Origin: an uncultured Candidatus Peribacteria bacterium
Lineage (GTDB): Bacteria > Patescibacteriota > Gracilibacteria > Peribacterales > Peribacteraceae
DNA length: 36,030 nt
Direction: 5' to 3'
Assembly: GCA_964348745.1 (NCBI GenBank)
Contig: CAYGDT010000003.1
Coordinates: forward strand, 1-36,030
Made by a program: the position numbers and the translations under genes. Each line of letters starts with the position of its first letter. Position 1 is the stretch's first letter. Below are positions 1,762 through 23,115 of the stretch, piece after piece. Below the pieces are notes generated by a model that saw only the letters and a list, made by a program, of their open reading frames with translations, did not search any database and had not been told where the DNA came from.

Positions 1762-1797
1762 ATCCTCTGCATCCTCTGCATCTTCTGCATCCTCTTC
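1762..1797 (+). repeat. 4 x 9-nt pyrimidine-rich tandem repeat abutting the rluD start
   Basis: ATCCTCTGC ATCCTCTGC ATCTTCTGC ATCCTCTTC, ending 4 nt before the ATG at 1802. If translated from the GTG at 1751 it gives a SASSASSASSS low-complexity stretch. Confidence 0.85.
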
Positions 1798-1801
1798 ACA
1801 C

Positions 1802-2746
1802 ATGGAATTCACCACTACCCACCCCGGCCGCCTCGATGTACTCATAGCCGCGCAGGACGGGAAGCTTTCGCGCGTCAAGATCCAAAAGGCGATCCACGAC
1901 GGGTTTGTCTCAGTCAACGACAAGATCGTTACGAAACCGTCATTGCAGGTTCCCATCGATTCCCGCATCCGCATTGAAGGTGGCCGATCACCCATTCCCG
2001 ATCACCCATCTGCCATCGAATCTATCAACCAGCACCTCACCGTTTTATATGAAGACTCTTCCTGTATGGTTATCGACAAGCCTGCAGGCATTTCGGTGCA
2101 TCCGGGGCATGCAGCAGACCCGGACGAACCTACACTTTTGAGTGGCATCCGATTTCTCTTTGAAGAGCGGTCTCTGCCTTTCTCTCCGCAGAGCGTTCTC
2201 GTGCATCGTCTCGATAAACCAACAACCGGTTGCATTTGCGTTGCCAAGTCCGATGCGGCGTTTCAGCATCTACAAAAGCAGTTTGAGGGGCGAACCGTGG
2301 GGAAGACGTACCTTGCAATCGTGGCGGGGGTTCCAGAACATAGCGAAGCAGACATAGACGCTCCGATAGGACGCAATCTCACTGATCGTACGAAGATGTC
2401 TGTGCTGAGAACTTCGGTCAGTCGCAATGCCAAAACATCGTACCGCGTTGTAGACGCAGCGGATAATTGCGCGTTGCTTGAGTGCGATCTGCACACGGGC
2501 CGTACCCACCAGATCCGCGTGCACCTTTCGTCCATTGGGCATCCTGTTCTCGGTGATGATTCCTACAAATCAGGCATGAGCAATCAGACTGCGGATCGTT
2601 ACGGTATTTCCGGCCTCTGCCTCCATGCGTGGACCTTAAAGTTTGTCTCGCCGGAAGACGATAAAGAGCACAGTGTCCGTGCTCCACTTCCGTCTCAGTT
2701 CAATCAAGCATTGGCTGCCACCGGACTTTCAATGCCTACTGACTGA
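1802..2746 (+). CDS. rluD: 23S rRNA pseudouridine synthase, RluA/RluD family with N-terminal S4 domain
   Basis: HRLDKPTTG catalytic Asp motif, GRTHQIRVHL motif and an S4-like N-terminus (SRVKIQKAIHDGFVSVNDKIV). I prefer the ATG at 1802 over the track GTG at 1751, which would translate the tandem repeat. Confidence 0.9.
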   Translation: MEFTTTHPGRLDVLIAAQDGKLSRVKIQKAIHDGFVSVNDKIVTKPSLQVPIDSRIRIEGGRSPIPDHPSAIESINQHLTVLYEDSSCMVIDKPAGISVHPGHAADPDEPTLLSGIRFLFEERSLPFSPQSVLVHRLDKPTTGCICVAKSDAAFQHLQKQFEGRTVGKTYLAIVAGVPEHSEADIDAPIGRNLTDRTKMSVLRTSVSRNAKTSYRVVDAADNCALLECDLHTGRTHQIRVHLSSIGHPVLGDDSYKSGMSNQTADRYGISGLCLHAWTLKFVSPEDDKEHSVRAPLPSQFNQALAATGLSMPTD

Positions 2747-2763
2747 GTAGATACGTGCTCAGG

Positions 2764-4503
2764 TTACTGCGTAAATGTCACCACATACTCCATTTCATCG
2801 AGTATCAAACCACGGTCGCCGCGCGAGGTGATCCGGTAGACGTTGCGGCCGAGGTGCAGTGTTGAGAGCTTGACACTCGCGATGTAGTTGAATGTCACGG
2901 AGCCCGGACTGTAGAGTTGCAGACGATAGCCGTTGACCCAGACACTCTGCGTCAAGTCAGACACGGTTCCTTCGATCACAAATTCGGATTCAGTTGTAGT
3001 GTACTCATTGCCTTCCGCAGGAGCAGTGACGCGTATGCTGCCCGGTTGAGTCGGTGCGTTCCTGGGCTCTAGCGCTTCTTCAGCTGTTTCCGTTGTGACA
3101 GGGCGCACTGTTCCCACAGACGCTCCGGTGCCGACGATTCCCTCTACACCCTCGCCGAGAATAATGGTGATCGTAACGGGCTCAGATCGGTAACCGCCGC
3201 GATTGATAGCCGTTACTTCGTAGATATTTTCTCCATTGCGGAAATTGTTCAGTTTGGTACTTGCGAGGTAAGACCAATTGCTATCGCCGGGCTTATAGAG
3301 CTGCAGACGGTAATCATTGACGACGATACCTACGGCATCTCTCGGTGCTGTTCCACTGATCTCAATTTCCTGACTGCTTGTTGCGTAGCGCTCACCACCA
3401 CTCGCCGGAGATACGATCGTCGGAGGTTCGGGCGGAGTCCTATTGCGAGTAACGGTGCGAATGGCTTCGGAGACGATCACGCCATCTTTATCGACGCCTT
3501 CTATGGCGATATGTACCTGATCTTCATCGGGTAGGGCGAGCTCCAGAGAGAACGTTCCGGCAGTGCGATTAATACCGGCTAGATATCCATTGATCCGAAT
3601 TTTATCGACGCCCGCACCCAGCTTCCCAGAAACTTCCAGTGTTTCCGTATCAACTGTTGTGTCTTTTTCCGGTGAGAGCACGGTCAGGGAAATGTCGTCA
3701 ACGTCGCCGCTTCCGTTAGATCCCGCATTTTCGCCTGAGGTATCCGTATCGTGAGAGAGTCCAAATCGTGCTGCACGGCTTTCCTCTACGAATGGCGATT
3801 GGAGCTCCTGAGGATCCAGAGGACTCCTGAAGGAATAGAGGTCTTCCTCCGCTTCATTGCCTGCCGGTAGTGTAAAGCGTTGCCCCTCACCGACGATCAC
3901 CTCATTGTCATTCCCCGCAATACGAAGTGATAAACCCGGTCCATCTGCAGAGAACACAGTGATGGAGCGCGGAGACATAACGAATTCCGACTGAGAGGGA
4001 ACGGTTGCGGTAATGTATGCACTGGCTATCGTTCGAGTGATTGCTCCGGAGTATGTGGTAATGGTCGGCGTGACCATCCAGATAGTTCCTTCTTCAAGAT
4101 TGATGGCGAGTGTGCTGCGAATTTGACCGCGACTGGATTTTACAATTGTAACTTGCGTACTCTCATCGAGGCGAACGGCGCTTCCGTCGAGTAGCGAGAG
4201 CAACGCTTGGTTGCGAGGACTCGTAACAACAGCATCACTCGGATAGAGTTTCATATCATTCTCTGCGTGTTTTAACGTGCCACCTTCCACCGAGACATTC
4301 ACGACGCTACTCTCCGATATGTGCAGTATCACAGGCTCAGTTTTCACAGAGTTACCGACACCGAAGTACGCCAGAGTTTTCATTGCTACGATAAAGAGAA
4401 GGATCACGATACCTGCGACGACGAAAGCCTTGCGTGCACGCTGTCTACTTACGTTGCTGACGCCATTGCGTCTTTGCCGCTGATGTCTTCGCTGTTGCAA
4501 CAT
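2764..4503 (-). CDS. membrane-anchored envelope protein with a FecR-like segment and three Ig-like repeats
   Basis: 579 aa. Basic N-terminus plus a TM helix (FVVAGIVILLFIVAMKTLAYF). FecR-like stretch (LYPSDAVVTSPRNQALLSLLDGSAVRLDESTQVTIV). Three beta-rich modules (INGYLAGINRTAGTF / VNDYRLQLYKPGDSNWSY / VNGYRLQLYSPGSVTFNY). It lies 55 nt downstream of the ATPase gene on the same strand. Confidence 0.75.
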   Translation of the reverse strand: MLQQRRHQRQRRNGVSNVSRQRARKAFVVAGIVILLFIVAMKTLAYFGVGNSVKTEPVILHISESSVVNVSVEGGTLKHAENDMKLYPSDAVVTSPRNQALLSLLDGSAVRLDESTQVTIVKSSRGQIRSTLAINLEEGTIWMVTPTITTYSGAITRTIASAYITATVPSQSEFVMSPRSITVFSADGPGLSLRIAGNDNEVIVGEGQRFTLPAGNEAEEDLYSFRSPLDPQELQSPFVEESRAARFGLSHDTDTSGENAGSNGSGDVDDISLTVLSPEKDTTVDTETLEVSGKLGAGVDKIRINGYLAGINRTAGTFSLELALPDEDQVHIAIEGVDKDGVIVSEAIRTVTRNRTPPEPPTIVSPASGGERYATSSQEIEISGTAPRDAVGIVVNDYRLQLYKPGDSNWSYLASTKLNNFRNGENIYEVTAINRGGYRSEPVTITIILGEGVEGIVGTGASVGTVRPVTTETAEEALEPRNAPTQPGSIRVTAPAEGNEYTTTESEFVIEGTVSDLTQSVWVNGYRLQLYSPGSVTFNYIASVKLSTLHLGRNVYRITSRGDRGLILDEMEYVVTFTQ

Positions 4504-4558
4504 TGGCCCATAATGGTACTTGAAAAGAGTGTGGGGAGTAAAGGGTTTGTTTCCTCGT

Positions 4559-5659
4559 TCACATCGTCACTCTCTTTATCTCCGATAGACTCGTGACCTT
4601 GCGTTCCACGAGGATTTTCCCCCATTCATCCATGGTGCGGAAACCCTCTTCTTTTGATTTTTTCAGTATGACTTCCGCGGTCTCATTTTGAAGAATCATC
4701 TCCCGTAGAGCAGGCGTAATCATCAGCAGTTCCGGCAGAGCCGTTCTCCCGTTGTAGCTCATATTGTCCGCAGGATCGCACGTCTTCGTTTTACATTCCG
4801 GCTTCAGTGAACGGACGAGTCGCTGGGCGAGAATTGCGCGAAGCGCCGGTGCGAATGTATAGGGACTCACGCCCATGGAAAGGAGGCGAGGAATCGCTTC
4901 GACTGCAGAGTTGGTGTGGAGCGTCGAGAGGACGAAATGTCCTGTGAGTGCCGCGTCGATCGCAGTCTGCGCCGTTTCGTAATCGCGGATTTCTCCGACG
5001 AGAATCACATCAGGGTCGTGGCGGAGTACGGAACGCAATCCCGAAGCGAACGTATAGTCATGTTCCGGGTCGATCTGGCTTTGCACGATTCCCGGCAGCT
5101 CGTACTCTACGGGATCCTCAAGCGTAATGATATTTCGTGACTTTCCAACAATGGCATTGAGGAGCGCGTACAGCGTTGTCGTTTTCCCGGACCCCGTAGG
5201 TCCTGTAATCAGAAACAAGCCGTTAGGCATGTCGACGATTTCCGCAAGTTTTTGGGCGATATCATTTTCAAATCCGAGCTGATCCAGCGGAACGATGCCC
5301 CGTGCCGGGTCCAGAAGTCGCAGCGTAAATTTCTCACCAAAACGCGATGGAATGCAGGCGACGCGTACGTTCACGCTTCGGTTTTTTTCGACAAACGTAT
5401 AATGCCCGTCTTGCGGAACATTTGTGACATTCAGCTTTAACTTGCTAATAAATTTTATTTGTCGGACGAGGTCTTGGTACGTCTTGTGGCTGAGACGAGC
5501 AATCTCCTGAAGAATTCCGTGCAGTCGCACTTCCAGTCGCACGTCGGATTTTTCCGGTGCGAAGTGAATGTCGGAAATACCTTCTTCAGTACAGTATTCC
5601 TGCAGCTGCTTTTGGAGCTGCGGACCGTCCATGCCGTCCCATTGGATACCTGTAACCAT
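4559..5659 (-). CDS. type II secretion / type IV pilus assembly ATPase (GspE/PilB/ComGA family, short form)
   Basis: 366 aa. Walker A GPTGSGKTTT, Asp box ITLEDPVEY, Walker B DPDVILVGEIRD and His box GHFVLSTLHTNSA. It lacks the long N-terminal GSPII domain, so its size is ComGA-like. Confidence 0.9.
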   Translation of the reverse strand: MVTGIQWDGMDGPQLQKQLQEYCTEEGISDIHFAPEKSDVRLEVRLHGILQEIARLSHKTYQDLVRQIKFISKLKLNVTNVPQDGHYTFVEKNRSVNVRVACIPSRFGEKFTLRLLDPARGIVPLDQLGFENDIAQKLAEIVDMPNGLFLITGPTGSGKTTTLYALLNAIVGKSRNIITLEDPVEYELPGIVQSQIDPEHDYTFASGLRSVLRHDPDVILVGEIRDYETAQTAIDAALTGHFVLSTLHTNSAVEAIPRLLSMGVSPYTFAPALRAILAQRLVRSLKPECKTKTCDPADNMSYNGRTALPELLMITPALREMILQNETAEVILKKSKEEGFRTMDEWGKILVERKVTSLSEIKRVTM

Positions 5660-5667
5660 ATCAATTT

Positions 5668-5696
5668 ATTATAGCACTTTTAGGACCTGTTGGCTA
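5668..5696 (-). promoter_or_regulatory. candidate extended -10 promoter of the ATPase gene (leaderless geometry)
   Basis: On the minus strand: TAGCCA (complement of 5691-5696), N17, then TGcTATAAT (-10 is the complement of 5668-5673). Only 8 nt separate the -10 from the ATG at 5659. Confidence 0.45.
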
Positions 5697-8296
5697 TGCA
5701 TCATTTCAGCATACCAAACTTGTCAAACGCACTCTGTATTCATCTGCTATCATCCCCCACCGTGTACTCCCGTGCCTCAAATCTTTCGGAAACCCAGCGC
5801 AGACGCTTTGTACGACAGCGAATGGTTGTCGTGCATGCAGGATTACTCATTTTGCTGCTGGTTATTGTGGCGCGGCTACTTGAACTTCAAGTTCTCAAAG
5901 GAGGTGACTATCGTGCGTTGGCTCAATCGCAACACTATGGCGGAGTTGTTTTGCCGGCGAAGCGCGGCGAGATCCTCTCAAGAAATAGTAAGACAGGTGA
6001 AACTAGTCTTTTTGCCACCAATACCACACTCGACATGGTGTACGTCGATCCGGTCGTGACGGATGATCCGGTTCTCGTTGCCAGACGTCTTGCGGAAATG
6101 CTCGTGACGGAGGATTTCCATGATCTGTGCACTCGAGGAAGTAAAGATTGTCCTTTAGAGCTTTCCGGATACTTCACTGATTCTTTTGATCCGCTTGCGC
6201 AGGTGCGACGTTTGGAATCCGGAGCGATCTTGGAGCCTATGCATATGATTTTTGCAGTGCCGGATCACCCTGAAAATACACCTTCCATCGAAGATGTTCG
6301 CAGCAGTTTTACTTCGGATATTCAAAAGAAAATCAGCGAGAAGCGAGTGACGTTTGTCCCTCTGAAATACGGAGCTACAAAAGAGGATATGTCTGCTGTC
6401 GATGCACTTGCGATTCCGGGGGTGTATGTCGTGCATGACACCAGTATCATCTTCGCGAATCCCGAGGCCGTTTCCCAGAATAAATTATCATCTGTTGCGC
6501 GCGATCTCTCCGAAATTGTTGAAACAGACGAAGATGTTTTGCAGCGCTTGCTGCGTTCCCGTCCACTGCGGTACGTACCGGTCATGCGCAAGTTGCCACC
6601 GGATCTCAGCTTGAAAATCAAGGAAATGAAGCTTCAGTCGATGAAGGACACCCAGAGCAGCAAACAGCAGGCTGAGACGCGCGAAGCAGCAGCATTGATT
6701 AGAGACCCCCTTCGATCAATTGCTCTGATCCCGGAACATTGGCGATACTACCCCGATGGCAGGGTTGCTTCGAGCGTCGTAGGGTTTCTCAACTCCCAAC
6801 AGGAGGCGCAGTATGGTATTGAGCGAACGTTTGATGCGGAGCTCAAAGGGCAGGAGGGTCTGATCTCGTCGGTATCCGATCCACAAGGGGGTCAGATTCT
6901 TACTGCAGAACAAACCATTATTGACCCGAAAGACGGCGATACGATCGTGTTGACCATTGATCGCTTCGTGCAAAAGAAAATTGAGGAAATCATGGATCAG
7001 GCAGTCATCGATTTTCATGCAGAGAGCGGGCAAGCGATCATGATGGATCCGTATACCGGTCGTATCATTGCCATGGTCAACGCTCCGACATTCGATAGTA
7101 ATAGCTTCGGAGGCGTTTACGATAAAGAGCCGCTGTATGTCGATGAAGGCAAGAGGAATAAAATCGTTGTGGAGATCTACCATCCGGTAACCAATCAGTT
7201 CGTTGTGAAGGGCTACATCGATGACATTTTTGGCAATGGTCGTACCGCCCTCGCTGTAATAACACAACAGGTGCTTGATGAAATAGAGAAACTCTATGAT
7301 CTTCGCGACATTGCTCGTTACTACTTATATATCGGTGACAACGATCGAAGAGAGGTTTTCCCAACGCAACGAGACGACATCTGGCTGAAGTTTAAAAACA
7401 ACGTCGGTGTGGGGGCATATCTCAATCGCACTATTCAGCAGATCTACGAACCGGGATCGGTTTTCAAGCCTATTACGATGGCTATTGCAATTGATCAAGG
7501 AGAGATCTCTCCTGAGGATACATATGATGACAAAGGTTTTATAAAGGTCGATGAGTTCACCATAAGAAACGCACTCAACGCAACGTACGGAAAGGTCAAC
7601 ATGGTAACGTGTATTCAGTTCTCCATTAACACGTGCATGACATCGATTTCCGAAAAGCTCGGAAAAAAACTTTTTCACCGCATGATCGAGCGTTTCGGAT
7701 TCGGAAAGATCACCGGAATAGAATTGGAAGACGAATTGCCAGGGGAGATTCTTCCATGGAAAAAGTGGAGTAACTCTCTTCTGGCGAATGCGGCATTCGG
7801 ACAAGGCGTATCCGCGACTCCGCTGCAAGTTATCACCGCTTGGTCGGCACTGAGCAACGGTGGCAAACTCATGAAGCCAACGATTATTGATAGTATTATT
7901 AAGAGCGATGGAACAGTGATAACGACGCAGCCGCGCATCATCGATCAGGTTATTACTCCCGAAACATCGGATACGATTACAGCGATTCTGGTTTCTTCTG
8001 TCGACGAAGGTTGGGGCAAGAGCGCCTCGATCCAGGGGTACGCGATTGCAGGGAAAACAGGTACAAGCCAGATTGCAGGTCCCGGTGGAAAGTATGAATC
8101 TGGTACGGGTTCGGGTATCGCATCATTTGGCGGATTTGCTCCCGTTCCGGATCCAAAGTTTCTCATGCTCGTAAAGTTTGATCGTACAGCGACCAAAGCT
8201 TCGGAGCATGGAGCTGGCTCCGCGGCTCCCGTCTATAAAAAAATCGCGGAGTTCCTCTTCGATTACTACGGGATTCCTCCGGGAAGGGAGGAGTGA
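5690..8296 (+). CDS. class B penicillin-binding protein (PBP2/FtsI-type transpeptidase) with large insertions
   Basis: TM helix (VVVHAGLLILLLVIVARLL), AKRGEILSRN dimerisation-domain motif, SxxK = SVFK (YEPGSVFKP), SxN = SIN, and KTG = KTGTS. The start is uncertain: TTG 5690, ATG 5696 or ATG 5822. Confidence 0.9.
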   Translation: MAMHHFSIPNLSNALCIHLLSSPTVYSRASNLSETQRRRFVRQRMVVVHAGLLILLLVIVARLLELQVLKGGDYRALAQSQHYGGVVLPAKRGEILSRNSKTGETSLFATNTTLDMVYVDPVVTDDPVLVARRLAEMLVTEDFHDLCTRGSKDCPLELSGYFTDSFDPLAQVRRLESGAILEPMHMIFAVPDHPENTPSIEDVRSSFTSDIQKKISEKRVTFVPLKYGATKEDMSAVDALAIPGVYVVHDTSIIFANPEAVSQNKLSSVARDLSEIVETDEDVLQRLLRSRPLRYVPVMRKLPPDLSLKIKEMKLQSMKDTQSSKQQAETREAAALIRDPLRSIALIPEHWRYYPDGRVASSVVGFLNSQQEAQYGIERTFDAELKGQEGLISSVSDPQGGQILTAEQTIIDPKDGDTIVLTIDRFVQKKIEEIMDQAVIDFHAESGQAIMMDPYTGRIIAMVNAPTFDSNSFGGVYDKEPLYVDEGKRNKIVVEIYHPVTNQFVVKGYIDDIFGNGRTALAVITQQVLDEIEKLYDLRDIARYYLYIGDNDRREVFPTQRDDIWLKFKNNVGVGAYLNRTIQQIYEPGSVFKPITMAIAIDQGEISPEDTYDDKGFIKVDEFTIRNALNATYGKVNMVTCIQFSINTCMTSISEKLGKKLFHRMIERFGFGKITGIELEDELPGEILPWKKWSNSLLANAAFGQGVSATPLQVITAWSALSNGGKLMKPTIIDSIIKSDGTVITTQPRIIDQVITPETSDTITAILVSSVDEGWGKSASIQGYAIAGKTGTSQIAGPGGKYESGTGSGIASFGGFAPVPDPKFLMLVKFDRTATKASEHGAGSAAPVYKKIAEFLFDYYGIPPGREE

Positions 8297-8304
8297 GGCA
8301 GTGT

Positions 8305-8988: not shown

Positions 8989-9024
8989 GCAAATGTGCGT
9001 AATTTATAGAATATTTTCTACAAA

Positions 9025-13608: not shown

Positions 13609-14418
13609 ATGCGACCTCTTATAGCTTTTGTAGCACTCGTAGCTCTTTGTAGCTGTTCGCAGCAGGTTCTCCCGCCGTTACCCGAGGGTGAACAAACCGT
13701 TACAGGAATACTGTTATCTGCACCTCTTTCTGCCGTCCGTCGTGGGTCGCACTTTATCGAACAAGACGGTGTGAACGTGTATTACGCGGAGAGTTCCCTT
13801 ATTAATCTACGCGACTACGAAGGCAAGAGAGTAACGCTGCGTGGATTTCTCGAGCACAACACCGATACAGATGATCTCTCCGTCCTCGTTGCACACTCCG
13901 TAGTGGATGTGGAGGAAACTACTCAAGAGTACACACTGAGCGAAATTTCTGTACTCGTCACAGTTCCTATCCAATGGAAGATGGTAAAGCGTGAGGGATT
14001 GTTTCAGTTTCGCCCCGAAGGCGACGAAGATCCCCTCCTGACTATTTGGCAGAGTGAAGGTACGGAGCTCCCCGATGGTGGGGTGCCGATCGTTGTCGAT
14101 GCGACACGGGCAACGCGGTTGATTGATGATCTTTCAGGAACGCAGATTGTCGCCATAAAACGCAGTGATTCCATCATGCAATTGCGATTCAGTCCGGGGA
14201 AGCGCACAAATGCTGATCGGTTGCTCGAGAATTTCATCGATGTACTTAAATCTGTGCATCTCGTTGGCAGCTCATCGAGTAGTTCTGCACTTCCGCAGTC
14301 CGGTAGCGGTGCGCTCGGAAACCCCTGCGGCGGTTCTGCCGGTGTCCTCTGTCCGGCAGGTTCCTTCTGCGATATTCAGGATTTTCAGGAGAATATAGGA
14401 CACTGTAGGACATTGTGA
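13609..14418 (+). CDS. lipoprotein of unknown function with a Cys-rich C-terminus
   Basis: Signal peptide with lipobox (MRPLIAFVALVALCSCSQ). C-terminal GNPCGGSAGVLCPAGSFCDIQDFQENIGHC. Confidence 0.75.
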   Translation: MRPLIAFVALVALCSCSQQVLPPLPEGEQTVTGILLSAPLSAVRRGSHFIEQDGVNVYYAESSLINLRDYEGKRVTLRGFLEHNTDTDDLSVLVAHSVVDVEETTQEYTLSEISVLVTVPIQWKMVKREGLFQFRPEGDEDPLLTIWQSEGTELPDGGVPIVVDATRATRLIDDLSGTQIVAIKRSDSIMQLRFSPGKRTNADRLLENFIDVLKSVHLVGSSSSSSALPQSGSGALGNPCGGSAGVLCPAGSFCDIQDFQENIGHCRTL

Positions 14419-14456
14419 TTGGTGATTGGTGATTAGTGATTGGTGATTAGTGATTT
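14415..14456 (+). repeat. 6 x 7-nt tandem repeat GTGATTR
   Basis: GTGATTG GTGATTG GTGATTA GTGATTG GTGATTA GTGATTT. The array starts inside the TGA stop (14416-14418) of the lipoprotein gene. Confidence 0.9.
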
Positions 14457-14558
14457 GGTAAAGAGGTACTCGTTGATTCCCATCTCACCTGCAATTTCCA
14501 AATTTCAGCAAGGGAGGAGTATTTGGAGTACCCGCAATATTTGCTATGATTCCGTCAT

Positions 14559-15206
14559 ATGGCGTTTTCATCACGCATGCGCTGGGCTGTAGGATTTCTT
14601 CTTTTTGCCGGTATTGTCGCAACAGTCGTACTGCAGAGCGACTTCGTCGTTTCGCGTGCTTCACTCATAGCTCAGAGCATTCCGACTGGTCAGCAAATGA
14701 TATGCGGTGATGGGATCGTCCAAGATGGAGAGCAGTGCGACGATGGTTCGCAGAATAGAAACGTCTCGGGAGCGCGTTGCAGAGCAGACTGTACTTCGGC
14801 TCGCTGCGGCGACGGCGTGCTGGATTCCTCGGAAATTTGCGATGATGGGAACCAATCAAACGGAGACGGCTGCGATTTCTTCTGCAATATTGAAGCAGGC
14901 GACCCCGGTATTACCGTGATCGGTTCACCGACGAATACGGATGACGTTATCAATATCAGCTTCCCTGCTCTCCCCGGAGTATTGCAGCCTCACGTGCCTG
15001 CAAACGTTCCGTCGGTCTATCAACAGCCGCCCGTTTTGCCGACACTTCCAAATATCCAGTCTCTCCCCATGCAGATCCCCTTGGCGCAGTTTCAGCCTCT
15101 TATTGAGTCGCACGGTCCCGCCGGTAAAACAGGCCCTGCTGCAGTAGCGATTATTGGGGCTGGCATAGCCGGTGGTGTGGGATGGATTCGAAAGAGGGGG
15201 AGGTAG
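14559..15206 (+). CDS. secreted cysteine-rich repeat protein (Myxococcus-type CGDG/CDDG repeats) with a C-terminal anchor
   Basis: N-terminal TM/signal (WAVGFLLFAGIVATVVL). Two repeats: CGDGIVQDGEQCDDGSQN... and CGDGVLDSSEICDDGNQSNGDGCDFFC. Pro-rich linker. C-terminal AGKTG, then a hydrophobic helix (PAAVAIIGAGIAGGVGWI), then RKRGR. Confidence 0.8.
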   Translation: MAFSSRMRWAVGFLLFAGIVATVVLQSDFVVSRASLIAQSIPTGQQMICGDGIVQDGEQCDDGSQNRNVSGARCRADCTSARCGDGVLDSSEICDDGNQSNGDGCDFFCNIEAGDPGITVIGSPTNTDDVINISFPALPGVLQPHVPANVPSVYQQPPVLPTLPNIQSLPMQIPLAQFQPLIESHGPAGKTGPAAVAIIGAGIAGGVGWIRKRGR

Positions 15207-15211: not shown

Positions 15212-15232
15212 AGTTCTTAGTTCTTAGTTCCT
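15212..15232 (+). repeat. 3 x 7-nt tandem repeat AGTTCYT
   Basis: AGTTCTT AGTTCTT AGTTCCT, starting 6 nt after the TAG stop at 15204-15206. Confidence 0.8.
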
Positions 15233-15320
15233 AGTGGTGATGATTCGATGCATTTTTTATATATATTTATCATTTGCAACCAAAGGTGTACGTCGTGCAA
15301 TACTATCTGCTTGCATTGTA

Positions 15321-15338
15321 GGTGTACAGGTGTACACT
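15321..15338. promoter_or_regulatory. palindromic operator-like site A (GGTGT-N8-ACACT) overlapping a candidate promoter
   Basis: GGTGTacaggtgtACACT contains the 8-bp perfect palindrome GTGTACAC. It overlaps the spacer and -10 of TTGCAT (15311-15316), N16, TACACT (15333-15338). An extra GGTGTAC half-site lies at 15285-15291. Confidence 0.45.
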
Positions 15339-15484
15339 CACATCCGCCATCAGCCTTCGCTCCTCGATCTTTCTTGCTTTCCTATTACTTGTAGCTCTCT
15401 GTGCTTCACGTCAGAAGCTACGGCCGACAGGTCAGCCTTCGCTCTTTGTTATTGTTTATTCACTGCACTACTACGATTCATTTT

Positions 15485-15526
15485 CAATTCTCAATTCTCC
15501 ATTCTCCATTCTCCATTCGCCATTCT
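15485..15526 (+). repeat. 6 x 7-nt pyrimidine-rich tandem repeat CMATTCT
   Basis: CAATTCT CAATTCT CCATTCT CCATTCT CCATTCG CCATTCT, ending 3 nt before the ATG at 15530. Confidence 0.9.
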
Positions 15527-15529
15527 CTT

Positions 15530-15772
15530 ATGCATTCTCTACCTCCAACGCCGGCCCGTGTATTTTCTCGCTCCGTTGTTATCGATTGCAGCAGGAATGC
15601 ACTGCAGAAACGCTTCGATCCCCGCTCGCTCCTGCAGTGGGTCCAAAGCTTTCCCTCTCGCGACGATGTCCATGTCTACCTTGGCAATGTCGCATTCAAC
15701 GGACAACGCGGCCTCATGCGTCAGCTACAGGCTATGGGATGCACGGTTACGTGCAGGCAGTACCAAAGCTAA
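15530..15772 (+). CDS. candidate small protein (80 aa) of unknown function
   Basis: The ATG follows a heptamer array in the same way as recA, mraY and gap. Product: MHSLPPTPARVFSRSVVIDCSRNALQKRFDPRSLLQWVQSFPSRDDVHVYLGNVAFNGQRGLMRQLQAMGCTVTCRQYQS. The C-terminal 60 aa look like a normal globular sequence and faintly resemble the first half of NYN/LabA-type domains (weak, unverified). The gene is not certain, because all three plus frames are open here. Confidence 0.3.
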   Translation: MHSLPPTPARVFSRSVVIDCSRNALQKRFDPRSLLQWVQSFPSRDDVHVYLGNVAFNGQRGLMRQLQAMGCTVTCRQYQS

Positions 15773-15783
15773 ACTTCCATAAT

Positions 15784-16800: not shown

Positions 16801-16882
16801 GAAGCCATGATATCACACCGAATATGTGTCGCATTTCACAAAGAATTTACTCGATTCCGTATTCTAGTCTGTACATTGAAAG

Positions 16883-16900
16883 GGTGTACAATATTACACC
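16883..16900. promoter_or_regulatory. palindromic operator-like site B (GGTGT-N8-ACACC)
   Basis: GGTGTacaatattACACC has perfect 5-bp arms and an A/T-rich 8-nt spacer. It overlaps the -35 zone of a leftward promoter whose -10 is TAGAAT (complement of 16861-16866), upstream of the hydrolase gene. Confidence 0.5.
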
Positions 16901-16964
16901 ATAATAAATGTGTACGAACGTAAAGTCCATCTACTTGCCCATCTCAGAAGATACACATATCGTA

Positions 16965-16982
16965 GGTGTACGTATAGACACC
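16965..16982. promoter_or_regulatory. palindromic operator-like site C (GGTGT-N8-ACACC) at the predicted recA transcription start
   Basis: GGTGTacgtatagACACC. It lies immediately downstream of TTGCCC (16935-16940), N17, TATCGT (16958-16963), so it covers the predicted +1. Confidence 0.5.
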
Positions 16983-17052
16983 TTTATTACTCATCGTACT
17001 AAACACTTTGGTTAGATAAGAGTAACAATTGTGCTTTATACCGAAAAATTTT

Positions 17053-17087
17053 CCATCTTCTATCTTCAATTTTCCATTATCCCTTTT
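17053..17087 (+). repeat. degenerate 5 x 7-nt pyrimidine-rich array in the recA leader
   Basis: CCATCTT CTATCTT CAATTTT CCATTAT CCCTTTT, followed by tcccactatcatc and the ATG at 17101. Confidence 0.7.
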
Positions 17088-17100
17088 TCCCACTATCATC

Positions 17101-18186
17101 ATGTCAAAGACTGCTACTCCTGTAAAACCTATGACCGATCAGAAAACTTCCGCGAAGAAAGACGACATAAAGCAAGTAAAGGATGATGCCATTGCTGCGG
17201 CACTTGCACAAATTGAAAAGCAGTACGGCGTTGGTGCCATCATGAAGATGGACGAGCACGCCGGCAGGCACATTCCTCGTTTCCCTTCAGGTTCCCTATC
17301 ACTCGATATCGCTCTTGGCGGTGGAATTCCGCATGGACGCATTATTGAAATCTACGGACCGGAGAGTTCGGGAAAAACAACTCTCAGTCTCCATGCAATT
17401 GCCGAAGTGCAACGCAAGGGCGGCAGAGCGGCCTTTATAGACGCTGAGCACGCACTTGATGTTCAGTACGCAAAGAAGATCGGCGTAAACATTGACCAAT
17501 TACTCGTATCTCAGCCGGATTCCGGCGAACAGGCACTCGAGATTTGCGAGACGCTCGTGCGCTCCGGTGCAGTCGATATCGTTGTCATTGACTCCGTTGC
17601 AGCGCTCACACCGCAGTCCGAAATCGACGGTGCCATGGGAGATGCACAAATGGGGACGCAGGCGCGTCTCATGAGTCAGGCGCTCCGGAAACTAACGGCC
17701 ATCGTCAATAAGACGCAGTGCAGCATCATTTTCATCAACCAAATTCGTATGAAGATTGGCGTGATGTTCGGCAACCCTGAAACGACTGCAGGCGGTCAGG
17801 CGCTTAAGTTCTACGCATCACTTCGATTGGATGTTCGCAGGATCGACAAAATCCTGGAGAAAATCCCCGGAACCGACGGAAAAGCAGCCGAACAGGAAAT
17901 TGTCGGAAACCGCACGCGTGTGAAAGTGGTGAAAAACAAGGTCGCGCCTCCATTTCGACAGGCAGAGTTCGATATCCTCTATGCACAGGGAATTTCCAAA
18001 GAGGGGGACATCCTCGATCTTGGCGTAAAGTACGGCGTCGTCGAAAAGAGCGGTGCATACTTTCGAGTCGGCGAGGAGACGATCGGGCAGGGTAAAGAAC
18101 AGGCGCGCATGTATCTCAAAGATAACCCAAAACTCACAGATCGCTTGGAGAAGGAAATTCGTAAACTTGCCGAAGTTGCCATCTAA
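17101..18186 (+). CDS. recA: recombinase RecA
   Basis: Walker [11 protein letters not shown]1/L2 region ([30 protein letters not shown]), 361 aa. The track TTG start at 17029 would translate the heptamer array ([14 protein letters not shown]), so I prefer the ATG at 17101. Confidence 0.97.
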
Positions 18187-18188
18187 CT

Positions 18189-18698
18189 ATGGAAGAACTC
18201 TACTCCGACAAACTCTGGAAAGTGGTGCGGGAATCCGCACCGCTTCCGGATGGAGGAGAAAAACAAATCACGCGACTGTATAGACCGGATGGAGTGCATA
18301 TTATTGCATTGACAGAAAATGGAAAAATCCTGCTTCTGAAAGAATTTCGGCCGTTTTACGGGACGTACATTTACATGCTCCCAAGCGGGAGAGTTGATAA
18401 AGAGAATGACCACCGCGAGGGGGCTCAACGGGAACTGCGAGAAGAAACCGGGTTTCGTGCAGAAAAGTTGGAGCACTTTTGCAGCGCACGCCAGTCGGAA
18501 TCGATGGAGTTTGAAAACCACGTCTACGTAGCTTCTGGACTTGTTAATGATCCGCTGCCGCAGGACGAAGATGAACGGATAGAAGTCATGGAATGTTCTC
18601 TGGTTGATACGATACTACTTGTTCATGGCAGCGCAAAGGTACATTTGCCCAGTGCGTACGCATTGCTGCGATATGCGTTTGAAAGGCCTAGGATTTAG
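18189..18698 (+). CDS. Nudix hydrolase (ADP-ribose pyrophosphatase-like)
   Basis: Nudix box GRVDKENDHREGAQRELREETGF. It starts 2 nt after the recA stop, so it is probably co-transcribed. Confidence 0.85.
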   Translation: MEELYSDKLWKVVRESAPLPDGGEKQITRLYRPDGVHIIALTENGKILLLKEFRPFYGTYIYMLPSGRVDKENDHREGAQRELREETGFRAEKLEHFCSARQSESMEFENHVYVASGLVNDPLPQDEDERIEVMECSLVDTILLVHGSAKVHLPSAYALLRYAFERPRI

Positions 18699-18712
18699 GA
18701 AAGGAAGCCTAG

Positions 18713-18740
18713 TTGACACATAAATAGTAAGCGTTAATAA
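18713..18740 (+). promoter_or_regulatory. candidate promoter of the MOSC gene (leaderless geometry)
   Basis: TTGACA (18713-18718), N16, TAATAA (18735-18740). ATGs lie at 18742 and 18748, and the second sits about 7 nt after the -10. Confidence 0.45.
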
Positions 18741-18741
18741 T

Positions 18742-19620
18742 ATGTTTATGGGAAATGAAATTCGACTTGTAGAGGCACGAAACTACCTGATTAAAGGTTG
18801 TGCAGCACAAATCTATAGAATGGGCGACGAATTCCCAATTGATAAAGAAGGTCCTGTGGATCAGCGCCGCTTTCAGATTGTAGATGCATTCAACAAAGTA
18901 TTTCGCAGCCAGAGACACAAAGGCTTTAATAGACTCGCACTTGTGCAACCGGAACTTGTGGAAAATACACTTACCCTTCGTGCGAATGGAATGCCCGATT
19001 GTGTTGTTGATTGTGACCACCACGGTGATGAAATAACTACTGTCACGTGGGAAGCCGAGGTTTTATCAGTTATTCAAGAAGATGCTTCGAGATGGATCAG
19101 TGAGTTTATGGGCAAAGATCTGCTCTTTGTTCAGAAGATTGGAGATCGTCCAATCAACAGCGAGTACGCCCCAGCAAATGCAACAATAGGATTCGCAGAC
19201 CGTTTTCCACTGACTTCTGTTTCTCAGGAGACAATTGATAAAACCGGTGTAGAAGGGAGTCGCTTTCGATATAACCTATTATTTTCCGGATGCAATGCTC
19301 AGGATGAAAATCGCATGGCGCGCTTCAAAATTGGAACATTTATTGCAACTGCTGCAAAGCCATGCGGTCGTTGCCCAACTATTAATGTTAATCAGGATAC
19401 AGGTGAAATTGATATGGATCTCTTGGATGAACTCTACAATAATTCCGCATTCCGGAATCCATATACTAGCGAAGTAGTAGTCTCCGAAAATAATCTTATT
19501 GAACAGCCGGGAGTTGTACGCGTTGGCAGCCCTGTCGAAGTACTTGAGTGGAGCGATGAAGGCTGGGACAGGCCTTATAATACAAATCATAAAAGGCAGC
19601 AGAAAATAATAGTTTCCTAA
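18742..19620 (+). CDS. MOSC domain protein (MOSC_N beta-barrel + MOSC)
   Basis: N-terminal IRLVEARNYLIKGC, FADRFPLTSVSQETID, and the conserved Cys motif KPCGRCPTINVNQDTGE. AT-rich: a hand count of 18781-18900 gives 50/120 G+C. The start may be 18748. Confidence 0.85.
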   Translation: MFMGNEIRLVEARNYLIKGCAAQIYRMGDEFPIDKEGPVDQRRFQIVDAFNKVFRSQRHKGFNRLALVQPELVENTLTLRANGMPDCVVDCDHHGDEITTVTWEAEVLSVIQEDASRWISEFMGKDLLFVQKIGDRPINSEYAPANATIGFADRFPLTSVSQETIDKTGVEGSRFRYNLLFSGCNAQDENRMARFKIGTFIATAAKPCGRCPTINVNQDTGEIDMDLLDELYNNSAFRNPYTSEVVVSENNLIEQPGVVRVGSPVEVLEWSDEGWDRPYNTNHKRQQKIIVS

Positions 19621-19623
19621 TCT

Positions 19624-19658
19624 AAAAAAAACACGCGCACTTTCGTACGCGTGTTTTA
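19624..19658. terminator. bidirectional rho-independent terminator between the MOSC and csp genes
   Basis: An 8-nt A-run (19624-19631, its last A doubling as the first stem base), stem ACACGCG (19631-19637), a 10-nt loop, CGCGTGT (19648-19654), then TTT. It sits between convergent genes. Confidence 0.75.
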
Positions 19659-19672
19659 GACATTCGAAGGAA

Positions 19673-19867
19673 TTATACCTTCTTAACATTCGCTGCTTTT
19701 GGACCTTTTGGTCCCTTTCCCTCTACGTACTCTACATTGTCTCCTTCGCGGAGAGAGTCGAAAGCAACACCTTCAAGGTCTGCTGAGTGGAAGAAAAGAT
19801 CGTCACCTCCCTCGCGGGTGATGAAGCCGAAACCGTTTAACAGTTTCTTAATAGTACCTGAACCCAT
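19673..19867 (-). CDS. cspA: cold-shock domain protein
   Basis: 64 aa, with the RNP1-like GFGFI and the RNP2-like DLFFHSAD motifs. Confidence 0.93.
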
Positions 19868-20020
19868 AGAAATAGGGTGAAAAAAGTAGAAATGTAATCT
19901 TAACTCTTGTAAGAAGCATCTCTACCTCTTTCAAAACTAATCTTACGTTTACAGTGTAGACCAAATCCAACGTATTTGCTAGCATATTTCCTTAAATCTA
20001 GAAGTATTTCTCCGTTGCTT

Positions 20021-20269
20021 CTATACAAGGGATATCTTCCAGTAGCACTCTCCGTGGCATTTTGCGCAGTACTGATTGCCGGATGCATGTTGCGGCCCGA
20101 CGGTGCAGTGCGCGCTGCAGCAATGTGATCGGATGTTTTTCTGCATATCCGGAGACATCCGCAATGTATGCTCCTTCTCGCGGACATGCTTCCAGCAGTA
20201 GTTGTTTCCACGCGCCTTCTTGGCCATACAACCTTGCATGGTACAATTTTGTCTTGCGGGCTGTTGCAT
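20021..20269 (-). CDS. candidate double zinc-ribbon mini-protein (82 aa)
   Basis: It carries two copies of a Cys/His module: CTMQGCMAKKARGNNYCWKH and CCSAHCTVGPQHASGNQYCAKCH (C-x4-C-x10/12-GN-x-YC-x2-H/C). This resembles the C-x4-C...G-x-C-x2-H ribbon seen at the N-terminus of many phage HNH endonucleases. It competes with overlapping ORFs in other frames, so the call is uncertain. Confidence 0.3.
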   Translation of the reverse strand: MQQPARQNCTMQGCMAKKARGNNYCWKHVREKEHTLRMSPDMQKNIRSHCCSAHCTVGPQHASGNQYCAKCHGECYWKISLV

Positions 20270-20481
20270 GGGAAGCTGGCGGAAAAATCCAGTGTATTCT
20301 CTTCTTTTAGATTGTGCTCAATGATCGTGCCTTTAATTACGCAGCGCATTTTCCACATCTTTTCCACATTTAGACCACAGTCAACGCATCATTCGCATCC
20401 AGCGTGGATACTTCGCAAGTCCACTTGGTTGTTTCGCTTCCCGCTCACACATAGAATCACATTCCTCTTAAGTATATACAT

Positions 20482-21870
20482 ATGCCAACCCAAAAATCCT
20501 CCGGCACAGGGCAGACTGTCGGCAACCAAGGCCTCTCCACGCAACCGCATAGCACGGAAGCGGAGCGTACGGTGATAGGAGCATTGCTCCTCGATCCTGA
20601 TGCCATCATTAAGGTCAGTGATTTCCTTGTAGCTGCAGATTTTTACGATCCAACCTACCGCGACATCTACGCGGCGATGTTTGAACTGTACAGCAACCAC
20701 GAGCCGGTGGACTTCGTAACGGTGAATGCGAAACTCATGAATAATACGAAACTTCAAGAAATCGGCGGTTCTGCGTTTCTTGCACAACTGACGTCGGAAG
20801 TACCGACCTCTTCGCACATCTATCAATACGGACAGATCGTAAAAACAAAGGCAATTCATCGCAGAATCATCGCAGCGGGACAGAAGATCGTTGGTCTCGG
20901 GTATAGCGAAGATACATTGATCCCAGAGTTGCTGGATGACGTGGAGAAAACGGTGTTTGAAATCAGCAATACTTTTTTAAAAGACAAATTTGTACATATT
21001 CGTCAAATTCTCGAGGAGCGTTACGAGCGATTTGCCGAGCTGCATGAATCCGATGAGGATGTTTTGAAGGGTGTCCCGACAGGATTTCATGTACTAGATG
21101 CAAAATTCTCTGGGTTCCAGCCGAGCGACCTGATCATTCTCGCAGCACGCCCTTCCATGGGAAAGACTGCTCTGGCACTTAATATCGCGCAAAACGCGGC
21201 AATTAAATTTGGAAAAAGTGTAGGCATTTTCTCTCTGGAAATGAGTAAGGAGCAGCTTGTTGATCGACTGTTTGCGTCCATGCTAGGCGTTGACAGCTGG
21301 AAACTGCAGAAAGGCAAACTGGAAGACAGTGACTTCCAAAACATGGGGCCGATTATGGATGAACTGAATAAGGCAAACATTTTCATCGACGATTCGGTTG
21401 CTTCATCCATTCCGGAACTGCGTGCAAAAGCCAGACGTCTCCAAATGGAGCACGGCTTGGATATGTTGATCGTTGATTATCTTCAGTTGATGAGTACGGG
21501 TAATCCTTCGTACGCTGGCAATCGCGTACAAGAGATCTCAGAGATTTCACGATCGCTTAAACAGATTGGACGCGAATTACATATTCCCATTCTCGCACTG
21601 TCACAGCTCTCCCGTGCAGTTGAAAGCAGGCCGGGGAACATTCCTGTGCTCTCGGATCTTCGTGAGTCGGGCTCCATTGAACAGGACGCGGACATCGTGA
21701 TGATGATGTACCGTGAGGACTATTACGAAGAAGACTCTGATCGTCCTGGCATGACGGATATCTACATCCGTAAGCACAGAAACGGCCCTATCGGGCGCGT
21801 TGAACTAATGTTTAAAAAGGATCACTTGCGCTTTTACGATGTAGATAAGGCACATAGTCACAGTGGATAA
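20482..21870 (+). CDS. dnaB: replicative DNA helicase DnaB
   Basis: N-terminal AERTVIGALLLDPDA, Walker A ARPSMGKTA, Walker B LIVDYLQLM, and SQLSRAVE. 462 aa. Confidence 0.97.
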   Translation: MPTQKSSGTGQTVGNQGLSTQPHSTEAERTVIGALLLDPDAIIKVSDFLVAADFYDPTYRDIYAAMFELYSNHEPVDFVTVNAKLMNNTKLQEIGGSAFLAQLTSEVPTSSHIYQYGQIVKTKAIHRRIIAAGQKIVGLGYSEDTLIPELLDDVEKTVFEISNTFLKDKFVHIRQILEERYERFAELHESDEDVLKGVPTGFHVLDAKFSGFQPSDLIILAARPSMGKTALALNIAQNAAIKFGKSVGIFSLEMSKEQLVDRLFASMLGVDSWKLQKGKLEDSDFQNMGPIMDELNKANIFIDDSVASSIPELRAKARRLQMEHGLDMLIVDYLQLMSTGNPSYAGNRVQEISEISRSLKQIGRELHIPILALSQLSRAVESRPGNIPVLSDLRESGSIEQDADIVMMMYREDYYEEDSDRPGMTDIYIRKHRNGPIGRVELMFKKDHLRFYDVDKAHSHSG

Positions 21871-21985
21871 CGGAAAATGATAGAGGATAAAGGATAGTGG
21901 ATAATAATTGAGTGATTTCATTTTATTACCCTTTATCCACTCTCCACTCTCCGTTATCCTTTACACACTCTCCGTTATCCTACTG
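21865..21985. repeat. purine-rich heptamer array followed by a complementary pyrimidine-rich heptamer array (long imperfect inverted repeat)
   Basis: Left arm, 21865-21920: GGATAAC GGAAAAT GATAGAG GATAAAG GATAGTG GATAATA ATTGAGT GATTTCA. Right arm, 21930-21985: CCTTTAT CCACTCT CCACTCT CCGTTAT CCTTTAC ACACTCT CCGTTAT CCTACTG. GGATAGTGGATAA (21893-21905) pairs with TTATCCACTCTCC (21933-21945) with 1 mismatch. GGATAACGGA (21865-21874) is perfectly complementary to TCCGTTATCC at both 21950-21959 and 21971-21980. Confidence 0.85.
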
Positions 21986-21987
21986 CT

Positions 21988-23049
21988 ATGCAAATCGACT
22001 TCATTCCCGTTCGCCCGGACATTACAACGGGAGAAATGCTTTTGTACGGTATCGTGGCATTCATCATTGGTCTTGCACTTACGCCATGGTTCGTAGCTTT
22101 CCTCCGCAAGAACCGTATGGGAAAGCAATTGCGCGTAGAAACTGTCGATAATCGCGAGGCGACGGTGTTCCGTAGATATCACCAGCACAAGTTCGGTACA
22201 CCGACGATGGGAGGTGTTCTTATATGGGTGTCGATACTTCTGACGGTTCTTGTATCCCGATCACTTGCACTCATGGGATTCGTCGATCACTCGCTCTTGC
22301 AGCGGGGACAGGTCTATTTGCCCCTCTTTGTCCTTGTGACGTTTGGATTGTTGGGTGGGTTGGACGATTACCTCAATATCATCGGAGCTGGGAAGAAAAA
22401 GGGGCTTGATTGGTTGCCAAAGATTCTCACGCTGCTGCTTATTAGCAGCATCGGTGCGTGCTGGTTTTACTTCAAGCTTGGGTACAATGAGATAGATATA
22501 CCGTTTCATGAACCATTGGAGGTTGGGCTGTTCTATATTCCAATCTTCATATTTATTATTGTCGGTACGGCAAATGCGGTGAATGTCACCGATGGTTTGG
22601 ACGGGCTCGCAGCGGGTTTACTTGCGATTGCATTCGGGAGTTTCGGCGTAATCGCATACTCAGCCGGACTGGATGTTCTCGCTGCGTTTTGCTTCGTCGT
22701 TGTCGGTTCTATTGCCGCTTTTCTGTGGCACAACGTTCCGCCGGCGCTATTTTTCATGGGCGATACAGGTTCACTTGCGCTGGGTGGTACGCTCGGGATG
22801 ATCGCCATGATGACAGATCAGGTACTGATCTTGCCCCTTGTTGGCTTCGTGTTTGTCATTGAAATGCTGTCGGTGATCATACAGCTTACCAGTAAAAAAT
22901 TTCGCGGAGGAAAGAAAATCTTCCGTGCTGCACCTATCCATCACCACTTCGAAGCGCTGGAGTGGGGTGAGAGCAAGGTGACCATGCGGCTCTGGATCAT
23001 CGGGGCATTCGTTGCGTTCATCGGAGTGGTTATTGCAACGTTGGGATAG
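21988..23049 (+). CDS. mraY: phospho-N-acetylmuramoyl-pentapeptide transferase
   Basis: Polytopic membrane protein with NAVNVTDGLDGLA and APIHHHFE motifs. 353 aa. Confidence 0.95.
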   Translation: MQIDFIPVRPDITTGEMLLYGIVAFIIGLALTPWFVAFLRKNRMGKQLRVETVDNREATVFRRYHQHKFGTPTMGGVLIWVSILLTVLVSRSLALMGFVDHSLLQRGQVYLPLFVLVTFGLLGGLDDYLNIIGAGKKKGLDWLPKILTLLLISSIGACWFYFKLGYNEIDIPFHEPLEVGLFYIPIFIFIIVGTANAVNVTDGLDGLAAGLLAIAFGSFGVIAYSAGLDVLAAFCFVVVGSIAAFLWHNVPPALFFMGDTGSLALGGTLGMIAMMTDQVLILPLVGFVFVIEMLSVIIQLTSKKFRGGKKIFRAAPIHHHFEALEWGESKVTMRLWIIGAFVAFIGVVIATLG

Positions 23050-23077
23050 CTCTGCGGAAGAGAAATCTGTATTTTCT

Positions 23078-23112
23078 CCATTCTCAATTCACTATTTCGC
23101 CTCTACTATAGA
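23078..23112 (+). repeat. degenerate 5 x 7-nt pyrimidine-rich array in the gap leader
   Basis: CCATTCT CAATTCA CTATTTC GCCTCTA CTATAGA, then cgc and the ATG at 23116. The upstream GAGAAAT (23060-23066) can pair with ATTTTCTC (23071-23078) with one bulge. Confidence 0.65.
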
Positions 23113-23115
23113 CGC

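Follow-up and report, generated by a model that had tools for sequence, protein, structure and literature searches.

The stretch of DNA considered here (hereafter the window) comprises positions 1 to 36,030 of contig CAYGDT010000003.1 (C3 in our numbering) from an uncultured Candidatus Peribacteria bacterium (assembly GCA_964348745.1), whose genome is 1.37 Mb in size and 99.5% complete, and whose RecA is 83% identical to a homolog from a 'Candidatus Peregrinibacteria' metagenome-assembled genome (MAG). It contains genes for an rluD-type pseudouridine synthase, recA, gap, purA, a class-Ib aminoacyl-tRNA synthetase (tyrS), and dnaB, which lies directly upstream of mraY. These names, assigned in a preliminary description made from the sequence alone, agree with Pfam, as in the PseudoU_synth_2 match of the rluD-type product and the Glycos_transf_4 match of the mraY product. 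Several of these genes had been described as preceded by pyrimidine-rich tracts of 7-nt or 9-nt periodicity, which directly abut the start codon and were proposed to act as a dedicated translation-initiation or leader element in place of the Shine-Dalgarno (SD) sequence. We consider it likely that these tracts instead belong to a population of short tandem repeats dispersed throughout the genome, mostly of 7-nt and in some cases of 8- or 9-nt units, which do not replace the SD sequence in a family that has abandoned it.

Arrays were called over the whole genome with Tandem Repeats Finder (TRF), and the tracts cited in the preliminary description were also read directly in the sequence. Genes and start codons were taken from an in-house open reading frame (ORF)/dicodon caller, which yielded ~1,125 genes and left 18% of the genome as intergenic. 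Among the five arrays reported before start codons, those of rluD, of an 80-aa ORF (15530-15772), of recA (weakly) and of mraY are tandem by TRF, whereas the gap tract is merely pyrimidine-rich; its treatment as a tandem array was rejected, as TRF returned nothing there at a score of 30 or more (Table 1). The ATCCTCTGC array, with 3 matches against 0.04 expected, lies in the divergent spacer between tyrS and rluD, its end being ~4-6 nt short of the rluD-type ATG (1802). It has no inverted partner, and the fold of this region consists only of a small upstream hairpin in which the array is not involved. The lone, pyrimidine-rich array at 15479-15527 and the recA tract are unstructured (fold z = +0.64 and -0.22, respectively), and the arrays at 1762, 15479 and 17051 all stand without an inverted-arm stem. 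The tandem units before mraY belong to a strong dnaB-mraY hairpin: the fold of 21850-21995 reaches -50.9 kcal/mol (z = -7.5, with no shuffle as stable), and the TRF call within its 3' arm covers 21933-21980 in 7/21-nt units. The minus-strand genes said to be preceded by the same class of words have no arrays; tyrS and purA have -10-like boxes (TACTCT at -13 and TACAAT at -12, 29232-29237, respectively), and at the 208-aa gene TTTCC lies around -16. Beyond the arrays listed in the preliminary description, the window contains three that adjoin or overlap stop codons, at 14415-14455, 15212-15235 and 21865-21904. An Rfam search of the window recovered a truncated tRNA only, with no match at the arrays.

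Table 1. Arrays and tracts of the window, repeat-unit families of the genome and PF05635 cassettes (window positions unless a contig is given)
Feature	Position	Strand	Basis	Remarks
9-nt tandem array ATCCTCTGC	1762-1795 (tract to 1797)	+	TRF, sequence	x3.8, 92% matches
GTGATTG heptamer array	14415-14455	+	TRF, sequence	x5.9; begins at stop codon of gene 13609-14418
AGTTCTT heptamer array	15212-15235	+	TRF, sequence	x3.4; just past stop of gene 14559-15206
CATTCTC/CCATTCT array	15479-15527	+	TRF	x7.0, 88% matches; 2 nt before ATG 15530
Weak TTCCATC array	17051-17077 (tract to 17087)	+	TRF	x3.9, 80% matches, score 33; in pyrimidine-rich tract before recA ATG 17101
Purine-rich 5' hairpin arm, GGATAAA/GGATAGT units	21865-21904	+	TRF, fold	overlaps dnaB stop codon 21868-21870
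Pyrimidine-rich 3' hairpin arm, TTATCCA/CTCTCCA units	21930-21985	+	TRF, fold	2 nt before mraY ATG 21988
Pyrimidine-rich non-tandem tract	23078-23115	+	sequence; fold z = 0.07	before gap ATG 23116
Unit family GGATAnn				73 arrays
Unit family GGTGATT/GATCGGT				46 arrays
Unit family AGTATTA				39 arrays
Unit family AATTTTC/CAATTCT				34 arrays
Unit family AAGCTAT				29 arrays
Unit family AACTAAG				24 arrays
Unit family CCATTCT/CGCCATT				14 arrays
Unit family GGGAATC-like (AATCGGG/GATTCCC)				13 arrays
PF05635 cassette	C39:4566-5011			
PF05635 cassette	C7:13491-13990			
PF05635 cassette	C17:16194-16658			
PF05635 cassette	C29:9432-9933			
PF05635 cassette	C4:19604-20079			
PF05635 cassette	C14:12717-13362			

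The periodicity itself is far beyond chance: TRF called 320 arrays of period 7 in the genome, whereas periods 6 and 8 gave 64 and 72, respectively. Of the heptamer arrays, 229 (72%) are intergenic, against the 18% of the genome that is so classified, and ~10 unit families account for nearly all of them, with the window array at 15212-15235 being a member of the AACTAAG/AGTTCTT family (24 arrays genome-wide). Two other genera of the family, sampled at 420 kb each, carry 226-348 heptamer arrays per Mb, and unit repertoires vary from genus to genus. The tracts are members of an STRR-like (short tandemly repeated repetitive) heptamer class, which is known but still unexplained, and which is new here in its lineage and architecture. 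The statement that they are not explained by any annotated feature was thus wrong in kind, as they are repeats of this class and often form the arms of hairpins.

This hairpin architecture is prevalent across the genome. Among 64 pairs of neighbouring arrays, 34 are inverted complements, against 4.7% for random pairs, and an inverted partner (at least 2 complementary units within 200 nt) accompanies 115 of 206 intergenic arrays (56%), against 12 of 206 in a control with reversed units. Fourteen GGATA-type loci share a common plan, [GGATAnn]n - loop - [nnTATCC]n, in which the repeat unit is the only thing in common, the loops, arm lengths and flanks being unrelated. A mobile repeat of the repetitive extragenic palindromic (REP)/bacterial interspersed mosaic element (BIME) type or of the miniature inverted-repeat transposable element (MITE) type was rejected because loops and flanks are unconserved: no element interior, ends or borders are shared across the fourteen loci. 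Separately, the rRNA spacer contains, ~30 nt past the 3' end of the 16S gene, a GGATA-type heptamer hairpin (C105:91-160), which recalls RNase III-processed rRNA insertions. Several arrays overlap the final 12-25 nt of the adjacent ORF (for example C14:13261-13362, C2:43786-43849 and C13:17063-17140), so that some C-termini may be repeat-encoded, or their stops miscalled.

By position, the arrays are not start-specific. Spacers with arrays make up 28 of 164 convergent (17.1%), 97 of 548 co-directional (17.7%) and 34 of 190 divergent spacers (17.9%), and array bases per kb are highest in convergent spacers (62), followed by co-directional (45) and divergent ones (25). Over stretches of 60 nt, autocorrelation at lag 7 comes to 0.302 ahead of starts and 0.301 behind stops, and heptamer arrays lie within 20 nt of ~75 starts (~7% of the genes). 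As both the lag-7 signal and the array frequency are equal away from starts, the claim of enrichment at starts fails. The CCAYTCT word, likewise not confined to starts, occurs upstream of them 14 times in sense and 3 times in antisense (5.4 expected), and after stops 11 and 13 times. What is tied to starts is the orientation of the arrays.

Of the arrays that end 20 nt or less from a start, 45 have a pyrimidine-rich sense strand and 5 a purine-rich one (binomial p = 4e-9). This holds for unpaired (20:4) and paired arrays (25:1), and unpaired arrays beside stops have no bias (16:16). In the hairpins the purine arm adjoins or overlaps stops and the pyrimidine arm adjoins starts; the order of purine arm followed by pyrimidine arm prevails by 30:4 in co-directional and 10:1 in divergent spacers, giving 40:5 for all start-flanked hairpins, whereas the ratio between convergent genes is 4:6 (Fisher p = 0.0023). 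Since the polarity is unbiased where no start flanks the hairpin, it stems from the adjacent start, and we rejected it as an intrinsic property of the element. This start-dependent orientation shows selection on which strand faces the gene start.

The paired arrays might then be functional RNA hairpins, which would serve in RNase III processing, insulation or stabilisation of 3' ends, sever polycistronic transcripts in the spacers and leave a short single-stranded pyrimidine leader on the next cistron. Such a role is compatible with membership in a repeat population, and would fit the frequency and strength of the hairpins, the placement of purine arms at or over stops and pyrimidine arms at starts, and the heptamer hairpin directly past the 16S gene. 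An RNase III gene is present in the genome, and this enzyme cuts the heptamer-bearing stem of the Coxiella intervening sequence (IVS; PMC4990558). Against it stand the imperfect complementarity of the arms, in which unit variants lie out of register, the 44% of arrays that are unpaired and the existence of canonical terminators; we therefore advance it only tentatively. The terminator scan of the window flagged a canonical intrinsic terminator (13-bp stem, T run) at 19628-19657 on the minus strand and none of the heptamer hairpins. T runs follow some pyrimidine arms. The lineage uses ordinary terminators besides its heptamer hairpins.

The preliminary description was right in noting that SD elements are missing at the cited starts, and in suspecting a lineage without SD-led initiation. 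The 3' tail of the 16S rRNA is GGAACACUUCCUUA, in which CUUCC replaces CCUCC (C105:20-62), and among 37 family genomes the anti-SD core is CCTCC in 6, CTTCC in 12 (including this genome), TTTCC in ~10 and TCTCC in ~10; thus it drifts within the family by C/U transitions only. The lack of SD elements here reflects a loss of SD/anti-SD pairing throughout the family. Across 692 confident starts G makes up 0.10-0.18 of the bases at -20..-1 without any purine peak, and SD-like words are rarer there than in a control interval at -60..-43 (GGAG 15 against 42, GGAA 18 against 62), with GGGGA found 0 times against 8.8 expected. Avoidance of upstream start codons was rejected as the cause of the G depletion, since ATG, GTG and TTG are depleted no more than composition predicts in this (biased) set of starts.

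A second signal emerges when 684 starts are aligned. TANNNT begins exactly at -12 in 118 of them and at -15..-12 in 267 (39%), against ~2% per position elsewhere, and the hexamer-aligned starts further display a pyrimidine at -1, TGn just upstream of the box and TTG at a 17-nt spacer (-23..-21 from the box). Placed at -12..-7, a -10 box of the sigma-70 type predicts transcription from the start codon itself and hence leaderless mRNAs, which we infer to be widespread in the lineage from what is a statistical signal. Four genes of the window would fit this class: mraY, where the last unit of the array yields TATCCT at 21976-21981 (-12..-7); gap, where TACTAT at 23104-23109 (-12..-7) is a candidate promoter for a leaderless transcript; and purA (TACAAT) and tyrS (TACTCT). 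A generic sigma-70 consensus scan of the window did not rise above shuffles, and the promoter signal emerges only in the genome-wide alignment of starts. At the other starts, the 15-20 nt upstream are G-poor and CU-rich. This extends to array-free genes and to genes inside operons where the spacer could not accommodate a promoter; with spacers of up to 19 nt, the G fraction is 0.13-0.17 and 2-3 of ~50 genes contain GGA[GA]. The -12 peak, G-poor leaders, SD depletion and enrichment of TCCC recur in the two other genera. The earlier proposal holds in its general part, in that a pyrimidine-rich, G-poor context takes the place of the SD, but this context is a property of all starts and not of the arrays. 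A subset of starts is preceded by an (A/C)TTTCCCC(C)TTT word with its C-run at -15..-10, where TCCCC is ~10-fold enriched; in the window it lies at 32515-32530 (caaattccccctttattATG) and ~24117-24133, and it is also seen in the two other genera. Having the same sense as the 16S tail, this word cannot pair with it.

These data bear directly on the proposal that pyrimidine-rich arrays form a dedicated initiation element, which would recruit the 30S subunit in place of the SD sequence, for instance via ribosomal protein S1. The 45:5 orientation at starts, the generality of CU-rich, G-poor leaders even at operon-internal genes, and the TTTCCCC-type word peaking at -15..-10 in three genera are what such an element might produce; the genome also encodes a multi-domain S1 homolog of 544 aa, a heptamer array occurs in a relative's recA leader, and the same idea was put forward for the TAACTGA repeats of another lineage (PMC4679880). 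Yet arrays are as frequent in convergent spacers and after stops as at starts, only ~7% of starts have one, and more than half of them are structured hairpin arms rather than unstructured tracts. The orthologous leaders of recA and of the 80-aa gene in relatives are CU-rich and tandem in one case only: the recA leader of another relative has a non-tandem CU tract, and the orthologs of the 80-aa gene have CU-rich leaders without an array. Moreover, the pyrimidine bias persists at 17:1 in leaderless-type genes, where the -10 box would place the array upstream of the presumed transcription start, and this is not predicted by a purely translational reading. With the arrays no commoner at starts and the bias extending to such genes, we find a dedicated initiation or leader element improbable.

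The proximity of arrays to -10-like boxes raises the alternative that they are promoter modules, providing the spacer, -35 region and -10 box for leaderless transcripts. The arrays of 28 leaderless-type genes run up to the box or stop just short of it, and the box is often a mutated last unit, such as TAAGCT in AAGCTAT arrays, TATCCT in TTATCC arrays and TACTCT in CGAGTACT arrays, and ATTGCTC arrays put TTGCTC 16 nt before TACAAT. However, arrays are equally common before leaderless-type genes (50 of 267) and box-less genes (73 of 417), and in convergent spacers; many unit families contain neither TTG nor TANNNT, and the generic promoter scan of the window gave no more than shuffles did. A general promoter role therefore appears quite improbable.

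A possible protein partner for the repeat population is indicated by genes of the S23p/IVP family (PF05635, '23S rRNA intervening sequence protein'), which encode a four-helix bundle. Six such genes score above the Pfam cut-off in this genome, whereas only 1 of 14 control genomes has any, and each of the six is flanked by tandem arrays with 7-, 8- or 9-nt units (Table 1). The arms are clearly inverted complements in four of the six cassettes; in C17 complementarity is unclear, and in C29 arrays were found on one side only. Those with strand-biased units (C17, C29, C4 and C14) have the purine-rich arm 5' and the pyrimidine-rich arm 3' in the sense of the gene. Identity among the six paralogs is 30-43%, and every paralog has a distinct arm unit, with three of them using the three commonest gene-less families (GGATAnn, GATCGG-type and AGTATTA). 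Across the family, PF05635 is present in 52 of 61 genomes in 0-24 copies, and in a comparison of 15 family genomes heptamer arrays number 0-36 per Mb in those without an IVP gene (apart from one at 225) and 75-350 in those with IVP genes (Spearman 0.69, p = 0.0045; Mann-Whitney p = 0.002). The window itself has no PF05635 match, and its arrays are at most gene-less relatives of these cassettes. A search of the genome for a reverse transcriptase as an Avd-like partner of IVP found no PF00078 match, which makes a mechanism of the diversity-generating retroelement (DGR) type unlikely. It is conceivable, though we would put this forward only as a speculative extension, that the arrays are non-autonomous partners of IVP genes, with each paralog maintaining or spreading its own family. 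They would thereby constitute a transposase-less class that might also explain the cyanobacterial STRR and Xanthomonas heptamers, and the copies surviving beside genes would be those whose pyrimidine strand can serve the downstream gene as a CU-rich leader or promoter spacer. The co-occurrence of array density with IVP genes and the paralog-specific arm units make such a partner testable.

Metagenome runs carrying the window give a glimpse of copy-number dynamics. In the contig of run X3, the array at 14415-14455 carries an extra GTGATTGGTGATTG (+14 nt, +2 units), and contigs frequently terminate at arrays. We also observed that over the GTGATTG array (window 14300-14596, runs X1-X4) the read depth is ~10-fold that of the flanks, with many loose ends into unrelated sequence, which points to the same heptamer array in other contigs or organisms of the metagenome. 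The earlier suggestion of slippage-prone simple repeats is thus partly borne out, by one array in one run and not by the cited tracts, which were invariant in three runs. Pure local slippage of arbitrary low-complexity sequence, without dispersal mechanism or partner protein, would agree with this whole-unit change, with the lack of the array before gene 15530 in its orthologs and with the differing unit repertoires among genera, but is very unlikely given that the same ~10 units recur at dozens of unrelated loci, that period 7 exceeds periods 6 and 8 ~five-fold, that inverted pairing reaches 56% against 6% in the control, and that all six IVP genes are array-flanked and array density follows IVP presence.

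Returning to the reading of the tracts as members of a genome-wide repeat population, we propose that arrays would expand and persist wherever intergenic DNA tolerates them, and that beside a start codon selection would retain only the orientation with a G-poor, pyrimidine-rich sense strand. Selection of this kind would yield the pattern noticed in the preliminary description. Once transcribed, paired arrays are probably RNase III substrates, by analogy with rRNA intervening sequences. As to their function, the arrays are candidate hairpins for RNase III, candidate spacers of promoters, or candidate selfish elements with IVP as their partner. Several observations weigh against this reading or its supports. 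The length change concerns one array only and comes from assembled contigs, the five cited tracts being invariant across three runs of one study. At the place of the recA array, the relative with 83% RecA identity has an ATTCCCT x4.4 array, and such a different heptamer array in the same position hints at a recurrent or retained function; likewise, the strong start-linked orientation bias could mean that arrays are used and not merely tolerated. The in-house caller misses some small genes, for example 15530-15772 in the window, so that the 'convergent' spacer class is impure. The comparison of arrays with IVP genes in 15 family genomes draws mostly on samples of 12-60 kb and is uncorrected for phylogeny, and one genome (G059) has no IVP gene yet 225 arrays per Mb.

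The 80-aa ORF at 15530-15772 has no Pfam match and had been taken for an orphan; this status does not hold, as homologs with up to 74% identity occur in 40 of 61 family genomes. Upstream of this gene we observed GGTGTAC-N-GGTGTACAC or GGTGTA-N6-TACACC palindromes in five genera (window 15285-15340; relatives L108, L109, L111, L112, L009 and L010), at distances from the ATG that vary from 7 to ~190 nt, and in relatives such palindromes also lie upstream of recA. They look like a putative operator of the SOS/LexA type.

These results have practical consequences. SD-based start prediction will fail in this genome, short-read assemblies break at heptamer arrays, and annotators should avoid labelling these repeats as ribosome-binding sites. 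The drifted anti-SD core, together with leaderless-type promoters and CU-rich leaders, bears on both gene calling and translation in the candidate phyla radiation (CPR). Our literature search on leaderless translation in Patescibacteria, SD loss in this CPR lineage and tandem repeats in Peregrinibacteria found nothing relevant.

Initiation independent of SD sequences is a feature of leaderless mRNAs in Actinobacteria and Deinococcus and of the SD-less, A-rich leaders of Bacteroidetes. The present genome resembles these in lacking an SD signal and leaving the anti-SD unused, with a -10 hexamer ending ~6-7 nt before the start in ~39% of genes, and differs in that its anti-SD core is mutated and variable across the family and its leaders are CU-rich rather than A-rich.

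As for the repeats, heptanucleotide arrays have been seen in bacteria since 1990, and their origin and function lack an accepted account; those of cyanobacteria, Xanthomonas and Beggiatoaceae form a class that is now joined by a CPR genome of the Peribacteria type. Like the cyanobacterial STRR and the Xanthomonas and Nostoc heptamers, the arrays described here consist of tandem 7-nt units in 2-12 copies, form dispersed families and are in excess in non-coding DNA. In Xanthomonas and Nostoc, the GGGAATC heptamers read antisense ahead of ORFs and sense behind stop codons (Rehm et al. 2015, PMC4692102), and the G/purine-rich strand follows the same rule here, where GGGAATC-like units occur in 13 arrays. 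In contrast to these systems, the host in this case is a 1.4-Mb CPR bacterium that does not use SD sequences, more than half of the arrays are inverted hairpin pairs, the orientation rule is tied to the start codon (40:5 against 4:6), and G-quadruplexes are not at issue for most units. In marine Beggiatoaceae, TAACTGA direct repeats lie a few nt upstream of the starts of unrelated housekeeping genes, in spacers without a canonical ribosome-binding site, and S1 was proposed as their binder (MacGregor 2015, PMC4679880). The two systems share heptamer repeats close before SD-less starts of housekeeping genes; that system, however, is dominated by one heptamer with most sets at starts, whereas ours has at least 10 families, equally frequent off starts and mostly hairpin arms. 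Finally, the IVS of Coxiella burnetii has GACAGAT heptamers of strain-variable number in an RNase III-cut stem (PMC4990558). This 23S IVS, with its S23p ORF, shares with the six cassettes found here the inverted heptamer arms, the long stem and an ORF for a four-helix bundle in the loop. The arrays of the window differ from it in being gene-less, in lying between protein genes rather than 23S helices and in being in several cases unpaired, and cleavage of their hairpins would follow by analogy with this IVS.

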